This document shows, piece by piece, positions 45,556 to 53,880 of a DNA stretch of 64,000 nucleotides. A program made the position numbers and the translations under genes. Within the stretch, counting starts at the first letter, position 1; each line of letters begins with the position of its first letter. The DNA comes from a bacterium. Lineage in GTDB: Bacteria > UBA8248. Where the stretch lies: positions 1,728,001 through 1,792,000 of the forward strand of contig CBDBZU010000004.1 of NCBI GenBank assembly GCA_965213625.1, written 5' to 3'. A model generated the notes under the pieces. The model saw nothing but the letters and a program-made list of their open reading frames with translations. It made no database searches and was not told where the DNA came from.

Positions 45556-46947
45556 ATGAGAAGAGGGTATCTCTACATGATGTCCGGACTGGTCTTCGCC
45601 GTAGGGGTTCTGTCCTTTGCCGACATAGGATTGGCGCAGGATGTAAAATCCATGGCAAAGAGCCTGGCGAATTTACAAGTCGCGGCGGACACTGTTTGGG
45701 TGATGGTGGCCGGGTTTCTGGTGTTTTTCATGCACGCAGGTTTTGCGATGCTCGAATCGGGACTTTGCCGGGCCAAGAACACTGTCGCTATTCTCTATAA
45801 GAATTTCGGAGTCGTCGCCGTCTCATCCCTGGCATTCTGGATATTGGGTTTCGCCCTCATGTTCGGCGATGGCAGCTCGATATTCGGTACGAACGGTTTT
45901 TTCCTGTCTGGGGCGGACAACAGCCCAGCCACGGGTGATGCGTACAAAGGTGTTTTCTCATCCCTGAATTGGACGGGTGTGCCGCTATACGCGAAATTTT
46001 TCTTCCAGCTTGTTTTCGCCGCGACGGCGGCGACCATCGTCTCGGGTTGTGTGGCCGAACGAATCAAGTTTTCCTCGTTCATGATTTTCAGCTTTCTGCT
46101 CGTAGCCATCATCTATCCCATCCAGGGCCACTGGATCTGGGGTGGCGGCTGGTTGGGAGGTATGGGATTTCTCGATTTCGCCGGTTCCACCGTGGTTCAC
46201 TCCGTAGGCGGCTGGGCTGGACTCGCCGGAATCATCGTTCTGGGTCCCCGGCTCGGGAAATATACGTCCGACGGTCGCATGCAACCGATGCCCGGCCACA
46301 ACATGCCGCTCGTCACGTTGGGTGGGTTCATCTTGTGGCTCGGATGGTTTGGATTCAACCCTGGTAGCACGATGGCCGCCGACGCGGGCGCCATCGCGCG
46401 TATCGCTGTAACGACAAATCTCGCCGCCTCTGCGGGCGTCGTGACTTCGAGCATTACTTCGCGGGCCATGTTCGGAAAAGCCGATCTTTCCATGAGCGTG
46501 AATGGCGCACTTGCAGGGCTGGTCGCCATCACGGCGCCATGCGCCAACGTTACTCCGCTGGGAGCGGTGATTATCGGTCTGGCCGCAGGCTTCATCGTCT
46601 GCGTTGCGATTCCGTTTCTCGATAAAATCAAGATTGACGATCCGGTCGGCGCCGTTTCCGTTCACTTGGTATGCGGTATATTTGGCACGCTTGCGCTGGG
46701 TTTGTTCGCCGCCCCTTCCGTTGACGATAGTGTCGTAGGTTTGTTCTACGGCGGCGGCGCAGGGCTCTTCATCAAACAACTAGTGGGAGTTGTCGCGGTC
46801 GGTGTCTTTACCTTCGTTTTGTCCTTTATTCTTTGGCATGTGGTGAAAGGTCTGATGGGCGTGCGCGTTTCCGCAGAGGATGAATTGGCAGGTCTCGACC
46901 TCTCGGAGCATGCGATGGAGGCCTACGCGGGCGAGAGGTTAGGTTGA
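45556..46947 (+). CDS. amtB: Ammonium transporter
   Basis: GFAMLESG, FQLVFA, GHWIWGGG, DFAGSTVVH, WFGFN, DDPVGAVSVH. Confidence 0.97.
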   Translation: MRRGYLYMMSGLVFAVGVLSFADIGLAQDVKSMAKSLANLQVAADTVWVMVAGFLVFFMHAGFAMLESGLCRAKNTVAILYKNFGVVAVSSLAFWILGFALMFGDGSSIFGTNGFFLSGADNSPATGDAYKGVFSSLNWTGVPLYAKFFFQLVFAATAATIVSGCVAERIKFSSFMIFSFLLVAIIYPIQGHWIWGGGWLGGMGFLDFAGSTVVHSVGGWAGLAGIIVLGPRLGKYTSDGRMQPMPGHNMPLVTLGGFILWLGWFGFNPGSTMAADAGAIARIAVTTNLAASAGVVTSSITSRAMFGKADLSMSVNGALAGLVAITAPCANVTPLGAVIIGLAAGFIVCVAIPFLDKIKIDDPVGAVSVHLVCGIFGTLALGLFAAPSVDDSVVGLFYGGGAGLFIKQLVGVVAVGVFTFVLSFILWHVVKGLMGVRVSAEDELAGLDLSEHAMEAYAGERLG

Positions 46948-47003
46948 TTCAGGCGCGAGGGGTTTATAACGAATGAATCTATCTGTTATCTTGAGAGGAA
47001 TGA

Positions 47004-47345
<342 letters not shown>

Positions 47346-47458: not shown

Positions 47459-47489
47459 GAAAACCGGCCCAGTTTCAAGGCCGGTTTTC
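47459..47489 (+). terminator. Probable terminator after glnK
   Basis: GAAAACCGGCC-loop-GGCCGGTTTTC. Confidence 0.6.
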
Positions 47490-47688
47490 TGCGTTTAAAT
47501 CTCTGAAACAGCACATTTTTTTAATGCGTCATTTTCAATAGACTCCCCGAAGTATCTGTTAATGCTGATTTTGAATGCCTTTCTTGAATTTAGTCATGCC
47601 TAAAAATATATTCAGCGAGGGTTGACTTTATTTTTATCTTCAGAATAAACTTATTTTGTAGGTTGTTTTTCTATGGGGAACCGAAAAC

Positions 47689-49650
47689 ATGATACGCGGC
47701 CTCAAAACGCCCGGGGCGAGGCTTGCTCTGCGAGTGAAAAATTCTTTGACGTTGCCGGCATGGCTTCTGGCTGCCGGTTTGCTGTTGATGGGTGTCTGCC
47801 CCGCTTCGGCGCATATCGTCCCTCCCGAGGAATTACACCCCGTTGCCGAAAGCTACCGTCGCACCAGTTTCATCTTGAATCTGAATCCCGTGCTCTGGCC
47901 GCAGGTGTGGTCCGATTTGAAGCGTATCGAAGATGCGCTCAGAAAAGTGAACTCTTCTGGCGTGAAGAAATTCCTGGAAGATCTGGCCAATGCCAAGCGT
48001 GTGGCACAACCCGTGGTGAGGGCTGATGAAGAACCGGACATGGTCGCCGCGCGCAAGATGGGGAGTCGTCTGGTTTTCTCGCTGTCCACGCGGGGGGTCG
48101 CTTCGCTGCTAATCTCTCAACTGGACGGAATCAAGGCGGGTTCTGGCAGAACTGAGGTGAAAAACCGCCTGGATGAGGCACGCAGAGTATTTCTGGCTTT
48201 CGCCGAGGCATTGCCGTACCTGGATCCTGAAGGTTGGAAGAGGATGCAAATCCATTGGCTCGAAGCGAATTCCAACCTCGGAGCCGCCGGGGTGATGGGC
48301 ATTGGTGCAAGGCCGATGAATATCGTGAAAATTCGCGAGAATATCGCGTTTATCCGACAGTATTTCCACTCGAACTTTTCCGGGTTCCGGGCCGGAAGAG
48401 AACACAGACTTCTGCCCCGTCCCAAAGCAAGCAAAACGTATATTGCAAAAGCAAAAGTACCGTGGCGGCTGCCTCCTGGTTCGGACATCAACAAACAACT
48501 CCCGCGTCCCAGACAAATTTTAGGCATGGCGGAGCGTGGAGTGAACGAGGCGGAAACATTTCTCATTGCCCTGGGCGATATGGCTTTTGACAGTGCGGAG
48601 ATTTTTGGTGAGCCCGCGCGCAGCTTAGGCGTTAGTTGCAACACCTGCCACAACAAGGGGGTGACGAATCCCAAATTCTTCATCCCGGGACTTTCCCGGA
48701 CGAAAGGCGGAATGGACGTGTCGAACAGCTTTTTTGCAGGGCACGCCAACAACGGTTTGCACGACCCGCTCGATACGCCCGACTTGAGGGGCATTCGCTT
48801 TACGGCCCCATACGGCAGAAACGGCCGTTTCGCCTCGCTCAGGGAATTCGTCCGCAACGTTATCGTGAACGAGTTCAACGGGCCCGAGCCCGACCCGATG
48901 ATCATGGACGGGATGATCGCCTACATGAACGAATTCGAGTTCTTGCCGAACCCGAAGCTGAAAAAAAGCGGCAGGCTCAATCCCGGGAAAGTTACAAAAA
49001 CGGCGCTGCGGGGCGAGAAGATTTTTCACCGGAAATTCCCCCAGATGATGGGCGGCATGAGTTGTGCGAGTTGTCACATCCCAAATGCGAACTTCGTGGA
49101 CCACAAACGTCACAACATCGGTTCCACGGGAGGAAGTAACCAGCCCTTTCATGTGGGCGGTCTAGATACGCCCACACTGCTTTCTTCGAAATTCACGGCC
49201 CCGTATTTCCACGACGGAAGCCTCCCCACCCTGCGGGCGGTCAATGATTGGTTCAACACGCAATTCAAGCTGGGATTGAACCGAAAGGATATCGACGACC
49301 TCACGGCCTACGTCGAAGCCGTGGGGGATGGCGTCCAGGGGATAGAAAAAACGGTTTACACGCTGGAGTCTGAGTTGGAGGAGTTCAAGTTTTTCCTCTC
49401 CACGTATGAGCGCTTGAAGAAGAAAAAGAAAAAAGAGTTGATCACCGTCTTGCTGAGAACGGTGGTCCGCGAAGTGCAGGCTCACAAATGGGATGTTCAG
49501 GACAAGGAGAATCTGCCGATTCTCAATGAAATGGAGAAGAAGCTGAATGAGGCCTTGCGAGCTCATCTCGCCGGCGACTTGAAGATAACCGACAGTAAAA
49601 TAGCAGCTTATCACGCCTTATATCAAGAAAACGTGGACAAACTTAAATGA
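47689..49650 (+). CDS. Secreted di-heme cytochrome c peroxidase/MauG-like protein with long N- and C-terminal extensions
   Basis: Signal peptide ending ASA; CNTCH (48637-48651) and CASCH (49063-49077); TPDLRG..APYGRNG, RGEKIF, TPTL..APYFHDGS. Confidence 0.8.
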   Translation: MIRGLKTPGARLALRVKNSLTLPAWLLAAGLLLMGVCPASAHIVPPEELHPVAESYRRTSFILNLNPVLWPQVWSDLKRIEDALRKVNSSGVKKFLEDLANAKRVAQPVVRADEEPDMVAARKMGSRLVFSLSTRGVASLLISQLDGIKAGSGRTEVKNRLDEARRVFLAFAEALPYLDPEGWKRMQIHWLEANSNLGAAGVMGIGARPMNIVKIRENIAFIRQYFHSNFSGFRAGREHRLLPRPKASKTYIAKAKVPWRLPPGSDINKQLPRPRQILGMAERGVNEAETFLIALGDMAFDSAEIFGEPARSLGVSCNTCHNKGVTNPKFFIPGLSRTKGGMDVSNSFFAGHANNGLHDPLDTPDLRGIRFTAPYGRNGRFASLREFVRNVIVNEFNGPEPDPMIMDGMIAYMNEFEFLPNPKLKKSGRLNPGKVTKTALRGEKIFHRKFPQMMGGMSCASCHIPNANFVDHKRHNIGSTGGSNQPFHVGGLDTPTLLSSKFTAPYFHDGSLPTLRAVNDWFNTQFKLGLNRKDIDDLTAYVEAVGDGVQGIEKTVYTLESELEEFKFFLSTYERLKKKKKKELITVLLRTVVREVQAHKWDVQDKENLPILNEMEKKLNEALRAHLAGDLKITDSKIAAYHALYQENVDKLK

Positions 49651-50555
49651 AGACTGCTATGCGTTTCATCCAGATTTCATTGTCGAAAGCACCGAGTGTT
49701 GCTCTCCTTGTATTCTCCATGTTCTTGTTCGCTTCGGTTCCCGTTCACGCTGCCGACAGAGAGATTCGGATCGCGTTCATTCCACTTGAGAATCCCGAAA
49801 AACTTATCAGCAACGTAAAGCCGGCGATGAATTTCCTGGAAAAAGAGTTGGGGCGCAAGGTCCGCTATTTCATCACCTTGAATTACTCGGCCGCAGTGGA
49901 AGCCATGATCTCGAAAAAAGCGGACGTAAGCTTCATGTCTCCGCTGCCCTATGTCCTGGCGAACAAGTATTCGGGAGTCAAGGCGGTCCTCGGGGAGATA
50001 TATGACGGAAAACCCTATTACTATTCCAGGATTTTCGTCCGCAAGGACAGCGGTATCAAGAAACTATCCGATCTCAAGGGCAAGACCATTGCTTATGTCG
50101 ACCCCATTTCGAGTTCGGGGTTTATGTACCCTCATGACATTTTCACTCGCGCTGGTTTGGTGAACGGGGGAGTGGCAAAGCCCGAGGGCGGATTTTTTAG
50201 AAGGGTTTATTTCGCAGGCGGGGATCAGCAGGCGATCAACTCGATAGTCGGAGGCTTCGTCGCCGCCGCCGGCGTCAGCCAATACGCCCTCAACCTCCTG
50301 CGTCCCGAGCAACGTGATCAGGTCGTCGCCATTGCGCAGTCAGCCAGAATTCCCAGTCACAACGTGGTGGTGCGCAAAGGGCTCGCCCCTGAAATCAGGC
50401 GAATATTCATCGCGGCGATGATGAAGATGAACCGGCCCGAAAATCGCAGTTTGATACGGGCTCTTTACGGAACGGATGGTTACGTGAAGGTTAACCACAG
50501 TCGATATAAGAAGGTGGCCGATATGGCTCGTAAGTATGGTTTCTTGAAGGAGTAG
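49647..50555 (+). CDS. PhnD-family phosphate/phosphite/phosphonate ABC substrate-binding protein
   Basis: Signal peptide, NYSAAVEAM, YYSRIFVRKDSGI..DLKGK, DPISSSG..P. Confidence 0.85.
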   Translation: MKTAMRFIQISLSKAPSVALLVFSMFLFASVPVHAADREIRIAFIPLENPEKLISNVKPAMNFLEKELGRKVRYFITLNYSAAVEAMISKKADVSFMSPLPYVLANKYSGVKAVLGEIYDGKPYYYSRIFVRKDSGIKKLSDLKGKTIAYVDPISSSGFMYPHDIFTRAGLVNGGVAKPEGGFFRRVYFAGGDQQAINSIVGGFVAAAGVSQYALNLLRPEQRDQVVAIAQSARIPSHNVVVRKGLAPEIRRIFIAAMMKMNRPENRSLIRALYGTDGYVKVNHSRYKKVADMARKYGFLKE

Positions 50556-50558
50556 GCA

Positions 50559-51404
50559 ATGTCGAAAGAAATGGTCATTCAGCTCGAAAATGCGCGCGTT
50601 GAGATGGGGGGACGGACGATTCTTTCTGTCGATCATCTCGAGGTCTATCGCGGGGAGAGAGTGGCCATTATCGGCAACAGTGGTTCCGGTAAGACGACCC
50701 TCATGAGAATGTTGAAGGGCTATGTGCCTTGTCAGGAGGGAAAGGTGGTTGTGATGGGGGATGTTTTTCCCATCAAGGAACCCAAAAAAATTAAAACCCA
50801 CCATCGCCATATCGGCATGATTCATCAGCATTTTGACCTGATTGGCCGCGAAACCGTCTGGCAAAACGTCTACCACGGAAGGCTCGGTTATGTGTCATTG
50901 CTTAAGAGCGTATTTGGAGTCTGCTCGCAACGCGATTTGCAAATCTGCGCACAGGCCATTCACGAAGTGCATCTCGAGGACAAGCAACGCCGCTTTGCCC
51001 GCACACTCTCCGGTGGAGAACAGCAGCGCGTGGCAATCGCCCGCGCTTTAGCGCAGGAGCCAGCGATTCTGCTTGCCGACGAGCCCGTATCGAGTCTGGA
51101 CCCGGCGTTGTCCGAGGACATTATGGATCTTCTCGTGTCGGTTTGCGACGCCTATGATCTCACGCTCATGATGAGTCTTCACCTTCCCGAGCTTGCGCGG
51201 AAGTATGCCGATAGAATTCTCGCGATGAAAAACGGAAAAATAATGTGGGATGGTTCTGCGGATTCCCTATCGAATGATAGGATATGTGAAATCTACGAGT
51301 TCATGGGAACGAACGGAGTCGTGAATGGGAACGGAACGAGAGCAAGCAGAAGCGCTTTCACCTGGCCGTATGGCTGGCAAGGTCAGCCTATTCCTGGTGG
51401 TTAG
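50559..51404 (+). CDS. PhnC-family ABC ATPase
   Basis: [47 protein letters not shown]. Confidence 0.9.
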
Positions 51405-52116
51405 CGCACTCTTATTCTGGTCTTTTCAGGGTTCTGAGTTTTCACCCGGGCAATTCTGGCGCGGGATTCCCCAACTGTTTCACTTCTTTGGACGCATGAC
51501 GCCGCCGGATTGGTCGGTCGGGGAAGTTTTGCTTACCTCGGCTGTCGAAACGCTGCAAACCACTATCGCAGGCACTTTTCTAGGCGCTTTGTTCGCCTAT
51601 CCGCTGGGTGTACTGGCGGCTTCGAACTGGACGCCGGTCTGGGTGCACTTGCCTATCAAGGCGTTCATGGCTTTCGTCCGCTCCATCCCCTTGCTGCTCC
51701 TCGCATTGTTGTTCGTCTCCGCTGTGGGACTCGGCCCCTTTCCCGGTGTGTTGGCGCTGGCGGTGCACTCGGTCGGGGTGCTCGGCCGTTTCGTGGCGGA
51801 GGAAATCGAGGCGACCGACCCGAAACCCCTGCTTGCATTGCAGGGTACAGGAGCCTCTCCCCTTCAAATCATTCAGCATGGCCTCATTCCTCAGGTGTTG
51901 CCGCAAATGGTGGCGCATCTGGCAATACGCTTCGAGATGAATCTTCGCGATTCCACGATTCTGGGTCTTGTCGGCGCGGGGGGCTTGGGATTTTACGTGT
52001 TCTTGTACGTGAAGCAGTTTCAGTGGCAAAAATCAGGCGTGCTGGTGCTGGCCATCATCGCCTTGGTCTTCGCGGGAGAATTCGCCGCATGGCAGGTCAG
52101 AAAGCGGTTGATTTAA
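51325..52116 (+). CDS. PhnE-family ABC permease
   Basis: PPDW, ETL, RSIP, VGLGPFPGVLAL, RFEMNLRDSTILGLVGAGGLG; start may instead be 51370. Confidence 0.88.
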   Translation: MGTEREQAEALSPGRMAGKVSLFLVVSALLFWSFQGSEFSPGQFWRGIPQLFHFFGRMTPPDWSVGEVLLTSAVETLQTTIAGTFLGALFAYPLGVLAASNWTPVWVHLPIKAFMAFVRSIPLLLLALLFVSAVGLGPFPGVLALAVHSVGVLGRFVAEEIEATDPKPLLALQGTGASPLQIIQHGLIPQVLPQMVAHLAIRFEMNLRDSTILGLVGAGGLGFYVFLYVKQFQWQKSGVLVLAIIALVFAGEFAAWQVRKRLI

Positions 52117-52203: not shown

Positions 52204-53880
52204 ATGGACACGCTAATTCACCTTCTCAAGGAAGCAACCGCGAAATTTCCTGACACGATTGCCCTGGAGGGTGACGTGGAAGGACGCGGCCGAGTGACAC
52301 TCACGAGAAAGGAGTTGTGCGGAAAATCGGTCGCTCTGGCGTGCGAGTTGATGGATGCGGGTGTAAAGCCGGGCGATTTCGTCGCACTTCTGGCGCCGAA
52401 TCAACCCGAATGGGGTTTGGGATATTTCGGGGCGTTGCTTGCCGGCGGTGTTTTGGTGCCTTTGGATGTGAATCTCAAAGAAGGTGAGATTGCGAACATC
52501 CTGGAGAAGGCAAGACCCGTTTGCCTGATGACGGACGCTCGGGAAGGGGAACGCGCGACGAAGCTTGCGGGCGAACTTGCATCTGCCTGTTCGGTGTTGC
52601 GCATCGATGATGAGAGAGAGCCTGACCACGCCGCTTCACTGGATTCGTTGCCGGGTGCTGAGCGCGGCCCGGACGATCTGGCGCTGGTTTCGTTCTCATC
52701 GGGAACGACGGGAACACCTAAGGGCGTAATGCTTTCCCACGGAAACATCACCTCCAATGTGCGCGCCGTACTCGAGCCTTTCTTCGCCGGGGAGGATGAC
52801 GTTTTTCTCTCGGTTTTGCCGCTTCATCACATGTTCGAGAGCACGGGCGGTTTTCTGATTCCACTGGCGGCCGGCGCCCGTGTGCATTACCTATCTTCTC
52901 TGAATCCTCGCCTCCTCGTCGAGGCCATGCAGAACGAAGGCATCACCATCTGCTTGATGGTGCCAGCGCTTGCACGGCTCATCCACAAGCGGATCATGTC
53001 GAACGTGGAATCACTGAGCGGTGCGAAGAAAATCATCTTCAAGATGCTTTTCGGGATTTCCGGCATTTGTCTCTCCATGGGCTTTCGCGTCGGGCATGTA
53101 CTATTTTCCCAGGTGAAGAAGAATCTCGGTCCGAATCTGCGCTATTTCGCGAGCGGAGGGGCTGCGCTCGACCCTAAAATTGCTCGCGATTTGCTCGTTT
53201 TGGGGATCGAGGTAATCCAGGGATATGGATTGACGGAAACCTCCCCGGTCGCCCATGTGACACCGCCGGGAGCGCCGAACAGAATCGGAACCGTCGGCCC
53301 GCCGATTCCGGGGGTGGAAGCGAGGCTCGTGCCTGTAGAGGGAGCGGATGAGGGAGAAGGCGAGATACTCATACGCGGGCCGAACGTGATGCAGGGCTAT
53401 TTTGAGAATCCCGATCTCACGGCGGAAGTCTTGCGGGATGGATGGTTTCATACAGGGGACATCGGTCGCATCGACTCAGATGGCTACCTTACGATCTGCG
53501 GCCGGTCCAAGAACGTCATCGTCTCCGAGGCGGGGAAAAACATTTATCCCGAAGAGGTGGAGGAGCAGCTCCTCGAGAGCGCATGGTTCCAGGATGTTTG
53601 CGTCATCGGCAGAAAAACGCCTCGCGGCGGCGAGGATGTGTTCGCCGTCGTGGTGCTCGACCCCGAAACCGATTTGCCGCAAGAGGACGAGAAGCGAGCC
53701 GCCCTGGCCGATTCCGAACTCAAGCGACTGAGCGCGCATCTTGCGGATTACAAGAGGGTGGCCGGTTTTTTCGTCTGGCCAGAGGAGGAATTGCCTAGGA
53801 CCACCACGCGCAAACACAAGCGAGAGGACATCAAGGCGATTTTACGGGAGCGGCCCGAATTCTCACTGGATGATTTTTGA
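52204..53880 (+). CDS. Long-chain fatty acid-CoA ligase (AMP-binding)
   Basis: SSGTTGTPKGVMLSH, LPLHH, GYGLTETSP, GWFHTGD, GKNIYPEEVE. Confidence 0.9.
   Translation: MDTLIHLLKEATAKFPDTIALEGDVEGRGRVTLTRKELCGKSVALACELMDAGVKPGDFVALLAPNQPEWGLGYFGALLAGGVLVPLDVNLKEGEIANILEKARPVCLMTDAREGERATKLAGELASACSVLRIDDEREPDHAASLDSLPGAERGPDDLALVSFSSGTTGTPKGVMLSHGNITSNVRAVLEPFFAGEDDVFLSVLPLHHMFESTGGFLIPLAAGARVHYLSSLNPRLLVEAMQNEGITICLMVPALARLIHKRIMSNVESLSGAKKIIFKMLFGISGICLSMGFRVGHVLFSQVKKNLGPNLRYFASGGAALDPKIARDLLVLGIEVIQGYGLTETSPVAHVTPPGAPNRIGTVGPPIPGVEARLVPVEGADEGEGEILIRGPNVMQGYFENPDLTAEVLRDGWFHTGDIGRIDSDGYLTICGRSKNVIVSEAGKNIYPEEVEEQLLESAWFQDVCVIGRKTPRGGEDVFAVVVLDPETDLPQEDEKRAALADSELKRLSAHLADYKRVAGFFVWPEEELPRTTTRKHKREDIKAILRERPEFSLDDF

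Follow-up and report, generated by a model that had tools for sequence, protein, structure and literature searches.

The 64,000-nucleotide (nt) stretch of DNA analyzed here, which we call the window, comes from a bacterium of the GTDB lineage UBA8248 (positions 1,728,001 to 1,792,000 of contig CBDBZU010000004.1, assembly GCA_965213625.1; genome completeness 96.6%). It contains a cassette of four closely spaced genes, head to tail and all on the forward strand, for a secreted di-heme protein, a periplasmic binding protein of the PhnD fold, and the PhnC-like ATPase and PhnE-family permease of an ATP-binding cassette (ABC) transporter. The original prediction, made from the sequence alone, had proposed a four-gene system in which a periplasmic heme enzyme changes the redox state of a reduced phosphorus, arsenic, selenium or similar oxyanion, or releases it, before import. 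Cooperation between the heme protein and the transporter is supported by synteny in 79 of 80 loci, by co-occurrence in 31 of 31 genomes and by a co-folding score of 0.79. The oxyanion cargo is not supported, and we tentatively regard the cassette as a metal uptake module instead.

Conserved linkage of the heme protein and the transporter

Related loci were collected by scanning one genome per species with patterns drawn exclusively from the C-terminal portion of the heme protein, and the best 80 of 82 confirmed loci (L numbers) were analyzed. They span about ten phyla, with Nitrospinota, Planctomycetota, Verrucomicrobiota/Opitutales, Acidobacteriota, Hydrogenedentota, Sumerlaeota, Lentisphaeria, Oligoflexia and others represented. 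A PhnD-like gene lies downstream of the heme gene in 79 of the 80; the exception, L057, is a 2.5-kb contig on which a regulator gene follows the heme gene before the contig ends. PhnC was found in 76 loci and PhnE in 75, each miss falling at a contig end. The neighborhood comparison across taxa that had been suggested with the original prediction thus finds the genes staying together. A 4-nt start/stop overlap between the heme and phnD genes recurs in many distant loci, and in L073 an outer-membrane barrel gene is inserted between them.

The heme protein itself belongs to a conserved full-length family. A word-based search returned 982 matches among 8000 scored candidates, and the best 120 of these are 614-682 amino acids long with 94-100% query coverage. 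Among 51 Nitrospinota genomes the heme protein occurs in 31, as a single copy in each, and exactly the same 31 genomes encode, at adjacent coordinates, a binding protein scoring at least 420 bits. Other PhnD paralogues in these 51 genomes reach at most 158 bits, save one orphan at 254 bits.

In the window, direct reading of the sequence confirmed the ATGA overlap of the heme and phnD-like genes at 49647-49650, and domain matches (PF12974, ABC_tran and TIGR01097) bore out the stated order of phnD-like gene, phnC and phnE. PhnD and phnC are separated by 3 nt. If phnE starts at its first ATG, it shares 80 nt (51325-51404) with phnC, an arrangement kept in close relatives and not in distant loci; the boundary between the two genes is uncertain because the overlap depends on this choice of start. 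The C-terminus of PhnC is a Gly/Asn-rich tail.

The AT-rich promoter region described upstream of the cassette was likewise recovered, as a drop in GC content to 42% from about 55% in the surroundings, together with promoter-like hexamers (Table 1). Five promoter-like sites were counted upstream against 3.0 +/- 1.4 in shuffled sequences, a difference that is weak taken alone. In an alignment of 15 Nitrospinaceae upstream regions, a TTGACT...TAAAAT pair is conserved, as is the stem of a hairpin after glnB. This hairpin, absent from the list produced by a simple terminator scan, likely acts as a terminator between the cassette and the amt-glnB unit directly upstream. The amt-glnB arrangement with its hairpin terminator recurs in 17 of the 80 loci, all close Nitrospinota relatives. 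Downstream of the cassette are an acyl-CoA ligase gene, which begins 87 nt past phnE without an obvious intervening terminator, and then an M20 peptidase gene. The ligase gene keeps its place after phnE in 20 of the 80 loci, all Nitrospinota-type, and may therefore be co-transcribed with the cassette in that lineage. We considered amt-glnB and the ligase as parts of the module and rejected them because their conservation is limited to Nitrospinota-type loci. With these neighbors on either side, no gene for C-P lyase, PtxD, HtxA or PhnX adjoins the cassette in the window, in agreement with the original prediction, and PhnJ has no match anywhere in the 96.6% complete genome.

Table 1. Position of the cassette genes, candidate regulatory elements and nearest neighbors in the window
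Feature	Position	Strand	Description
Ammonium transporter (marine subtype) and P-II (glnB) genes	45556-47345		directly upstream of the cassette
Hairpin and T-tract 3' of glnB, likely terminator	47460..47496	+	AAAACCGGCC...GGCCGGTTTT, then CTGCGTTT
Promoter-like hexamers TTGAAT-17-TATATT	47584-47612	+	span the palindrome
16-bp palindrome, candidate operator	47589..47604	.	TTTAGTCATGCCTAAA
Promoter-like hexamers TTGACT-18-TAAACT	47622-47651	+	sequence scan
Di-heme protein gene	47689..49650	+	open reading frame (ORF), 653 amino acids, secreted
PhnD-fold periplasmic binding protein gene, altered pocket	49647..50555	+	ORF, 302 amino acids
PhnC-like ABC ATPase gene	50559..51404	+	ORF, 281 amino acids
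PhnE-family permease gene	51325..52116	+	ORF, 263 amino acids; start uncertain (80-nt overlap with phnC)
Acyl-CoA (long-chain fatty acid) ligase-like gene	52204-53880		after phnE

Metal-sensing regulators, outer-membrane channels and a shared palindrome

Regulators of the DtxR/MntR family travel with the cassette in many lineages. When 114 ORFs flanking the cassette in the 56 more distant loci were scanned with Pfam, such a gene turned up beside the cassette in 16 of the 56, and tblastn found one in 24 of the 80 loci (one of them, L077, weak). In the deep Nitrospinota lineages L016, L017 and L019 the regulator heads the operon. All 16 scanned regulators score higher with an MntR model than with the DtxR model, and five (L028, L029, L032, L041 and L073) pass the curated MntR equivalog cut-offs of NCBIfam. 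At the positions of Asp8 and Glu99 of MntR, DtxR carries Met and Cys. In the 22 alignable regulators the Asp8 position is occupied by Asp (12), Asn (7) or Gln (3) and never by Met, and the Glu99 position by Glu (19) or Cys (3; L057, L064 and L071). Asp8 and Glu99 are marker residues of the MntR family according to the accessible part of PMC6860424.

The genome from which the window was taken encodes an MntR-type regulator elsewhere, with D14 and E106 and 48% identity to the cassette-linked regulator of L016. No NRAMP gene was found in this genome. Across Nitrospinota, NRAMP scored above cut-off in none of 31 cassette-positive and in 2 of 20 cassette-negative genomes, a comparison that depends on two genomes and supports a manganese role of the cassette weakly. 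A second DtxR-family regulator was noted at L096 (G000:C4:2918546-2921731), in which the Asp8 position is His and the Glu99 position Cys. It directly precedes a binding protein with weak PhnS/Fe(III)-type similarity, and the two possibly form an iron-responsive pair.

All-against-all clustering of ORFs from the 80 loci revealed one further family common to distant loci, a MetA-type outer-membrane barrel (PF13557). By tblastn, this barrel is present in 21 of the 80 loci and an OprB porin in three. Also encoded near cassettes are FeoB, a ZnuA-family protein, a ZIP transporter, TonB-dependent receptors, small chains of ribonucleotide reductase, AhpC and a Fur/PerR-like regulator, for which the best model is PerR at a score under the cut-off. 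No Pho-type regulator, PtxD, C-P lyase or arsenic gene was recurrent among the 114 flanking ORFs.

The candidate operator of the window lies inside one promoter-like hexamer pair and just before the second, better conserved pair. In the alignment of 15 Nitrospinaceae regions it takes the conserved form TTTAG(G/A/T)CATG(C/T)CTAAA. Seventeen Nitrospinota loci each contain the pattern TTTAG-N6-CTAAA a single time, invariably some 100 nt ahead of the heme gene, and 17 distant loci each contain a single TTTTGA-N4-TCAAAA, which in every case shortly precedes the first gene of the cluster. Together these are 34 sites, with zero elsewhere in the 1.02 Mb of the 80 loci, where chance would give about 1 site of the first pattern and about 0.06 of the second. 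In its own genome, the window palindrome is the sole close match at up to two mismatches, save one 2-mismatch site. Sites of the TTTTGA-N4-TCAAAA type numbered 1, 1, 2, 3 and 2 genome-wide in five other genomes, against 0, 0, 1, 0 and 2 for a control; one of the four extra sites precedes a MetA-type barrel gene and the other three lie at unrelated genes. That barrel gene, in a member of the Opitutales, is not linked to a cassette and has the palindrome TTTTGAGTATTCAAAA directly upstream (L186, G054:C232, position ~1500). Since an unlinked barrel gene carries the palindrome of the cassette, the barrel seems to share its regulon. Comparison with the enterobacterial MntR box AACATAGCnnnnGCTATGTT, as given in the accessible part of PMC1698941, revealed no convincing likeness.

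A divergent heme protein, a rebuilt pocket and a predicted complex

The heme protein is, as originally described, a secreted protein of 653 residues with a CCP/MauG signature and two CxxCH motifs. A Sec-type signal peptide (residues 1-41) ends in ASA and leaves a mature N-terminus of H42-IVPPE. The CxxCH motifs are CNTCH at 317 and CASCH at 459, with no others, and account for all four cysteines of the mature protein; a fifth, C37, is in the signal peptide. Three parts can be distinguished: a helical docking domain (~50-255), a divergent CCP/MauG-type two-heme core (~256-550) and a C-terminal four-helix bundle (550-653). Pfam CCP_MauG (PF03150) matches residues 442-517 only, with 47 bits (cut-off 25.6), and RoxA-like_Cyt-c matches with 30.1 (cut-off 26.7). 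Scores stay far under the NCBIfam cut-offs for MbnH/MauG (TIGR04039, 54.5 against 362.85; TIGR03791, 31.9 against 443.85), bCcP (NF040606, 23.1 against 150) and hydrazine synthase gamma. Profile matches in the PDB are to hydrazine synthase gamma, CcpA, MauG and an MbnH-like enzyme.

Using hhalign against three canonical CCP_MauG paralogues of the same genome, only residues 433-546 align (E = 1e-14). This alignment to canonical members covers the second heme domain, with its DTPTL and PYFHDG motifs, and the first heme domain gives none. An invariant W521 occupies the Met-ligand column in a hidden Markov model (HMM) alignment to Shewanella oneidensis CcpA, and W521/F522 do so in hhalign with the three paralogues; we take the heme ligand at this position to be Met in bCcP and Tyr in MauG. 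The three paralogues, two of them in tandem outside the window (L082/L083, G000:C4:1868734-1870336), have a tyrosine (Tyr310 in the numbering of the first) aligned to the Met ligand of S. oneidensis CcpA. At the ligand position they would be MauG-like rather than bCcP-like.

Structure prediction of the whole heme protein, folded without heme, gave a mean predicted local distance difference test score (pLDDT) of 73.5, with parts of the heme core low; the N-terminal helical domain folded alone reached 88.9. A Foldseek search of the PDB with the whole model returned bCcPs as its best rows, none at E <= 0.001. In VIA-align only the C-terminal four-helix bundle was matched, and generically so (Z ~13, root-mean-square deviation (rmsd) 1.9-4.6 A, ~100 residues). 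The N-terminal domain resembles generic helical bundles, best a catenin-type bundle (Z 7.3, rmsd 4.9 A, 165 aligned residues), and a search of the ESM Atlas with residues 42-290 gave no usable match. By sequence, we rejected a derivation of the docking domain from imelysins: hhalign against nine imelysins encoded next to short forms of the heme core (see below) gave a probability of 1%, and there is no Pfam M75 match.

These short forms emerged from a search of 1.84 billion representatives with the heme protein, which produced 1894 matches at E <= 0.001 and 134 at E <= 1e-30. Some of the matches are 430-450 amino acids long, align to residues 256-653 only and are without the docking domain. 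Neither PhnDCE nor MntR was found in any of 34 metagenome loci of short forms (L100-L133), so that the N-terminal domain is the mark of the transporter-linked form. In the 18 short-form loci scanned, an imelysin (PF09375) gene lies directly upstream in nine and a PF04185 phosphoesterase (phospholipase C/acid phosphatase family) gene alongside in 11. This cluster of imelysin, short-form heme core and phosphoesterase appears to be uncharacterized.

The binding protein is a PhnD-family member by PF12974 (2.8e-57) and TIGR01098 (180.1, cut-off 112.05), and does not pass the PhnD equivalog TIGR03431 (175.9 against 261.1). Its closest solved relatives are PtxB, ArrX, HtxB, PhnD and AioX, with the highest identity to PtxB (E = 2.9e-26). 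The permease passes the PhnE model TIGR01097 (266.5 against 216.7); PhnC falls short of TIGR02315 (237.4 against 266.1) and matches ABC_tran. A weak Transferrin Pfam match (E = 0.008) is under cut-off.

Residue roles in the Ps_PtxB pocket were taken from the accessible part of Bisson et al. (PMC5700983), in which a phosphite-type pocket has a capping Tyr that makes a P-H...pi contact, an Asp that holds this cap, and the STS-H histidine. The hinge tyrosine Y94 is kept in the cassette protein as Y125 and the Ser-Thr-Ser anion loop (S124, T125, S126) as S155-S157. The STS-H histidine H155 is absent and an invariant GGD193 stands in its place; the capping Y203 is replaced by H238, and D16, which holds the cap, by L47. 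These pocket replacements are invariant across 52 sequences. The motif YFAGGD193xQ195 and H238 are invariant in cassette binding proteins, and N49, Y80, E85, E117, Y119, Y125, D152, S157, R223 and Y274 are conserved with the motif across 52 to 75 of them. By sequence, the binding protein retains part of a phosph(on)ate site without the three residues that define phosphite and phosphonate binders. Its pocket appears rebuilt by the addition of His, Asp and Tyr to the retained oxyanion half-site, and because this half-site (Y125, S155-S157) is kept, an oxyanion may travel together with a metal. Identity with GpxB was rejected, its residue set, as far as the accessible part of PMC12718374 gives it, being different.

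The orphan PhnD-fold protein of Nitrospinota (L099; G009:C91:1530-2570, minus strand) is 38% identical to the cassette binding protein. It has FFAGGY in place of YFAGGD and retains the equivalent of His238. We treat it as a sister paralogue because no heme gene and no PhnCE genes lie beside it; two upstream ORFs are without a Pfam match.

Co-folding of the heme protein with the binding protein, one of the checks suggested at the outset, came out strongly positive. Residues 42-653 of the former and 36-302 of the latter were folded together with two hemes, on alignments of 52 loci paired row by row. The scores obtained, 0.78, 0.79 and 0.82, compare with 0.00 for the best of three controls. In calibration, 116 of 157 solved complexes attain the same mark, as do 2 of 215 mismatched pairs; these rates are only roughly valid here because custom alignments and a ligand were used. 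Contacts agree by at least 86% between runs, with partner pLDDT of at least 85. On the heme protein, the interface consists of an arm (42-48) starting from the nearly invariant H42, a loop (184-208, with W190, L191, G198 and G201) and residues 597-606 (H599, K600, W601). On the binding protein it is the cleft face, with N49, Y80, E85, E117, Y119, D152, Y188-Q195, R223, H238 and Y274, and conserved residues of this protein are enriched there (23/66 against 13.1 expected, P = 6.5e-4). The heme protein is predicted to dock with its histidine arm and added helical domain over the cleft. In such binding proteins the cleft face is the face that meets the permease. A partner seated on the cleft must therefore leave before delivery, which fits a loading role.

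Interpretation and relation to known systems

We favor, tentatively and at somewhat less than even confidence, the view that the cassette encodes a metal-regulated uptake module, probably for manganese, in which the heme protein is a redox-active loading partner. A metal cargo is suggested by the metal-sensing regulators together with the shared operator, the channels of the outer membrane and the rebuilt pocket; from the observed linkage, regulators, operator and pocket and from the modeled complex, we infer the particular metal, the direction of the redox change and the hand-off. An outer-membrane channel and an MntR-type repressor are encoded with the module in many relatives. The di-heme protein would serve as a periplasmic loading partner, docking by its helical domain and histidine arm on the cleft face of the binding protein. 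Through its two hemes it could shift the redox state of the metal, as between Mn(III) complexes and Mn(II), or alternatively release the metal from a complex with (pyro)phosphate or an organic ligand. Once loaded, the binding protein would dissociate and bring its cargo, and possibly an oxyanion as well, to the PhnE/PhnC importer. The accessible part of Lucker et al. (PMC3578206) reports no known manganese importer in Nitrospina gracilis and states that dissolved manganese in suboxic zones can consist predominantly of Mn(III)-pyrophosphate.

A more specific proposal, which we consider doubtful, is that the cassette represents a new class of high-affinity manganese importer, with redox-gated capture by the di-heme protein and hand-off by the histidine arm into a repurposed phosphonate-type cleft. 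Manganese would be taken from Mn(III)-ligand or (pyro)phosphate complexes, or Mn(II) would be oxidized. If this proposal is true, the heme protein would be the first metallochaperone of an ABC importer to depend on heme, and the cassette would be the missing manganese importer of Nitrospina-type nitrite oxidizers and may serve many uncultured marine phyla.

Several observations weigh against a manganese uptake module. No regulator gene adjoins the cassette in the window or in close relatives, so that the link to a regulator rests there on the operator and on analogy. A metal other than manganese may be involved in some lineages, given the three regulators with Cys at the Glu99 position and the 10 of 22 with Asn or Gln at the Asp8 position. 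The genome-wide regulon of the palindrome in five genomes named no known manganese gene, and the complementarity with NRAMP depends on the two genomes mentioned. PhnE-type permeases are, to our knowledge, known for anions and not for cations. The closest solved relatives of the binding protein are all oxyanion binders, and the short heme-core forms adjoin a phosphoesterase, which is a link to phosphorus. In the predicted complex, conserved residues of the heme protein are not enriched at the interface (7/195 against 9.9 expected), and the enrichment in the cleft of the binding protein is not independent proof because conservation of the cleft is expected for any ligand.

The heme protein could instead be a maturation enzyme, which would modify a residue of the binding protein with H2O2 and long-range electron transfer and so create a cofactor or ligand site, after which the binding protein would work alone. 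Characterized enzymes of the MauG branch work on partner proteins, as MbnH does on MbnP. MauG acts on a partner protein, according to the accessible part of PMC6405878. The weak matches to the MbnH and MauG models, the strong predicted complex (0.79 against 0.00), the strict linkage (79/80 loci; 31/31 genomes) and the invariant aromatics at or near the interface (W190 and W601 of the heme protein; Y80, Y119, Y188 and Y274 of the binding protein) are consistent with such a role. However, the model scores are far under their cut-offs, W521/F522 stand where MauG would have Tyr and bCcP Met, and contact through a helical domain and a cleft-seated arm looks like loading and less like remote oxidation. 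Maturation alone would leave the metal regulators and outer-membrane channels unexplained, although it is compatible with a metal cargo. We consider it unlikely.

Iron as the cargo of the same architecture also seems improbable to us. Following the logic of EfeUOB or imelysin-peroxidase operons, Fe(II) would be oxidized or Fe(III) complexes reduced for a transferrin/FbpA-like site. Iron-regulated uptake operons that combine a heme peroxidase with a helical accessory protein have been described (PMC3143127, in its accessible part), and in 9 of 18 scanned loci a short heme-core form comes directly after an imelysin gene. FeoB, a Fur-family gene and TonB-dependent receptors beside some cassettes, the three regulators with Cys at the Glu99 position, the binding-protein cleft rich in Tyr, Asp and His, and the sub-threshold Transferrin match point the same way. 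Against this, all 16 scanned regulators score as MntR over DtxR and five pass the MntR cut-offs, the Fur-family neighbor is best described as PerR at a sub-threshold score, and the docking domain is not detectably an imelysin.

The oxyanion system first proposed, in which the heme enzyme would oxidize or release a reduced phosphorus, arsenic or selenium oxyanion in the periplasm for import by PhnDCE, fares poorly, and we think it quite unlikely. The binding protein does belong to PF12974 and TIGR01098 with PtxB, ArrX, HtxB and AioX among its closest solved relatives, the half-site Y125/S155-S157 is retained, PhnE passes its equivalog cut-off, and a phosphoesterase accompanies short heme-core forms in 11 of 18 loci. 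But the three defining phosphite/phosphonate contacts (the STS-H His, the capping Tyr and its Asp) are lost or replaced, invariantly so in 52 sequences. Pho-type and phosphorus-catabolic or arsenic genes do not recur in the flanking ORFs, PhnJ is absent from the genome, and the regulators that do recur are metal sensors.

A plain periplasmic peroxidase for defense against H2O2, with the importer co-expressed for protection from oxidative stress, is very improbable: membership in the CCP_MauG superfamily, AhpC and a PerR-like gene near some cassettes and the known role of manganese import in the response to peroxide stress would fit, but co-regulation alone does not explain the adjacency in 79 of 80 loci, the frequent 4-nt overlaps and the 31/31 co-occurrence, the dedicated docking domain and predicted complex are unexplained, and the genome already has three ordinary CCP_MauG paralogues.

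If the favored view holds, genes annotated as phosphonate ABC transporters in at least ten phyla, mostly uncultured marine and subsurface lineages, would not be phosphorus genes but would belong to metal-acquisition machinery with an obligate heme partner, and phnD counts used as phosphorus-stress markers in metagenomes would need rereading. A redox enzyme docked on a binding protein would be a new mechanism of trace-metal uptake. It would also offer a candidate manganese supply for Nitrospinota, which are without a known specific importer as far as the accessible part of PMC3578206 states. The pairing had not been recognized as described when it was first noted, and a literature search, with most subscription journals outside its coverage, found neither a di-heme protein coupled to a PhnD-type transporter nor an MntR-linked PhnD-type system; the accessible part of a survey of the CCP_MauG superfamily (PMC6405878) does not mention the pairing.

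Individual parts of the cassette can be related to known systems. With the bCcP/MauG/MbnH superfamily (PF03150), the heme protein shares two CxxCH hemes and an aligning second heme domain. It is twice the size of bCcP (~320-400 amino acids), with an extra N-terminal helical domain of about 210 residues and a C-terminal four-helix bundle, has W521/F522 where the Met or Tyr ligand of bCcP or MauG is expected, and its first heme domain cannot be aligned. The binding protein shares the fold, the hinge Tyr and the Ser-rich anion loop with PtxB, PhnD, HtxB, ArrX and AioX (PhnD fold, TCDB 3.A.1.9); it differs by the missing STS-H His, H238 for Tyr, Leu for Asp and the YFAGGDxQ motif, and is always paired with the heme protein.

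At the level of the whole system, EfeUOB and imelysin-di-heme-peroxidase operons also combine a periplasmic protein of heme peroxidase type and a helical accessory with a metal importer and a metal repressor, to judge from the accessible part of PMC3143127. The cassette has a PhnD/PhnE-type ABC transporter instead of an Ftr1-type permease and MntR-type regulators, its heme protein is c-type and CCP/MauG-like, not DyP or DUF1111, and its docking domain is without detectable imelysin homology. In AztD-AztC and ZinT-ZnuA, an accessory periplasmic protein docks on a binding protein and loads it with metal. The principle proposed here would be the same, whereas those chaperones are without a redox cofactor and their binding proteins belong to cluster A-I (ZnuA fold). 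As with MntH and MntABC/SitABCD, an MntR-type regulator is encoded beside the transporter (in some related loci) and the cassette has a palindromic candidate operator at its promoter; unlike them, it uses another transporter family and an obligate heme partner, and its palindrome differs from the enterobacterial consensus. ABC importers and redox-assisted metal uptake are both known, and it is this pairing of parts that appears to be unprecedented.

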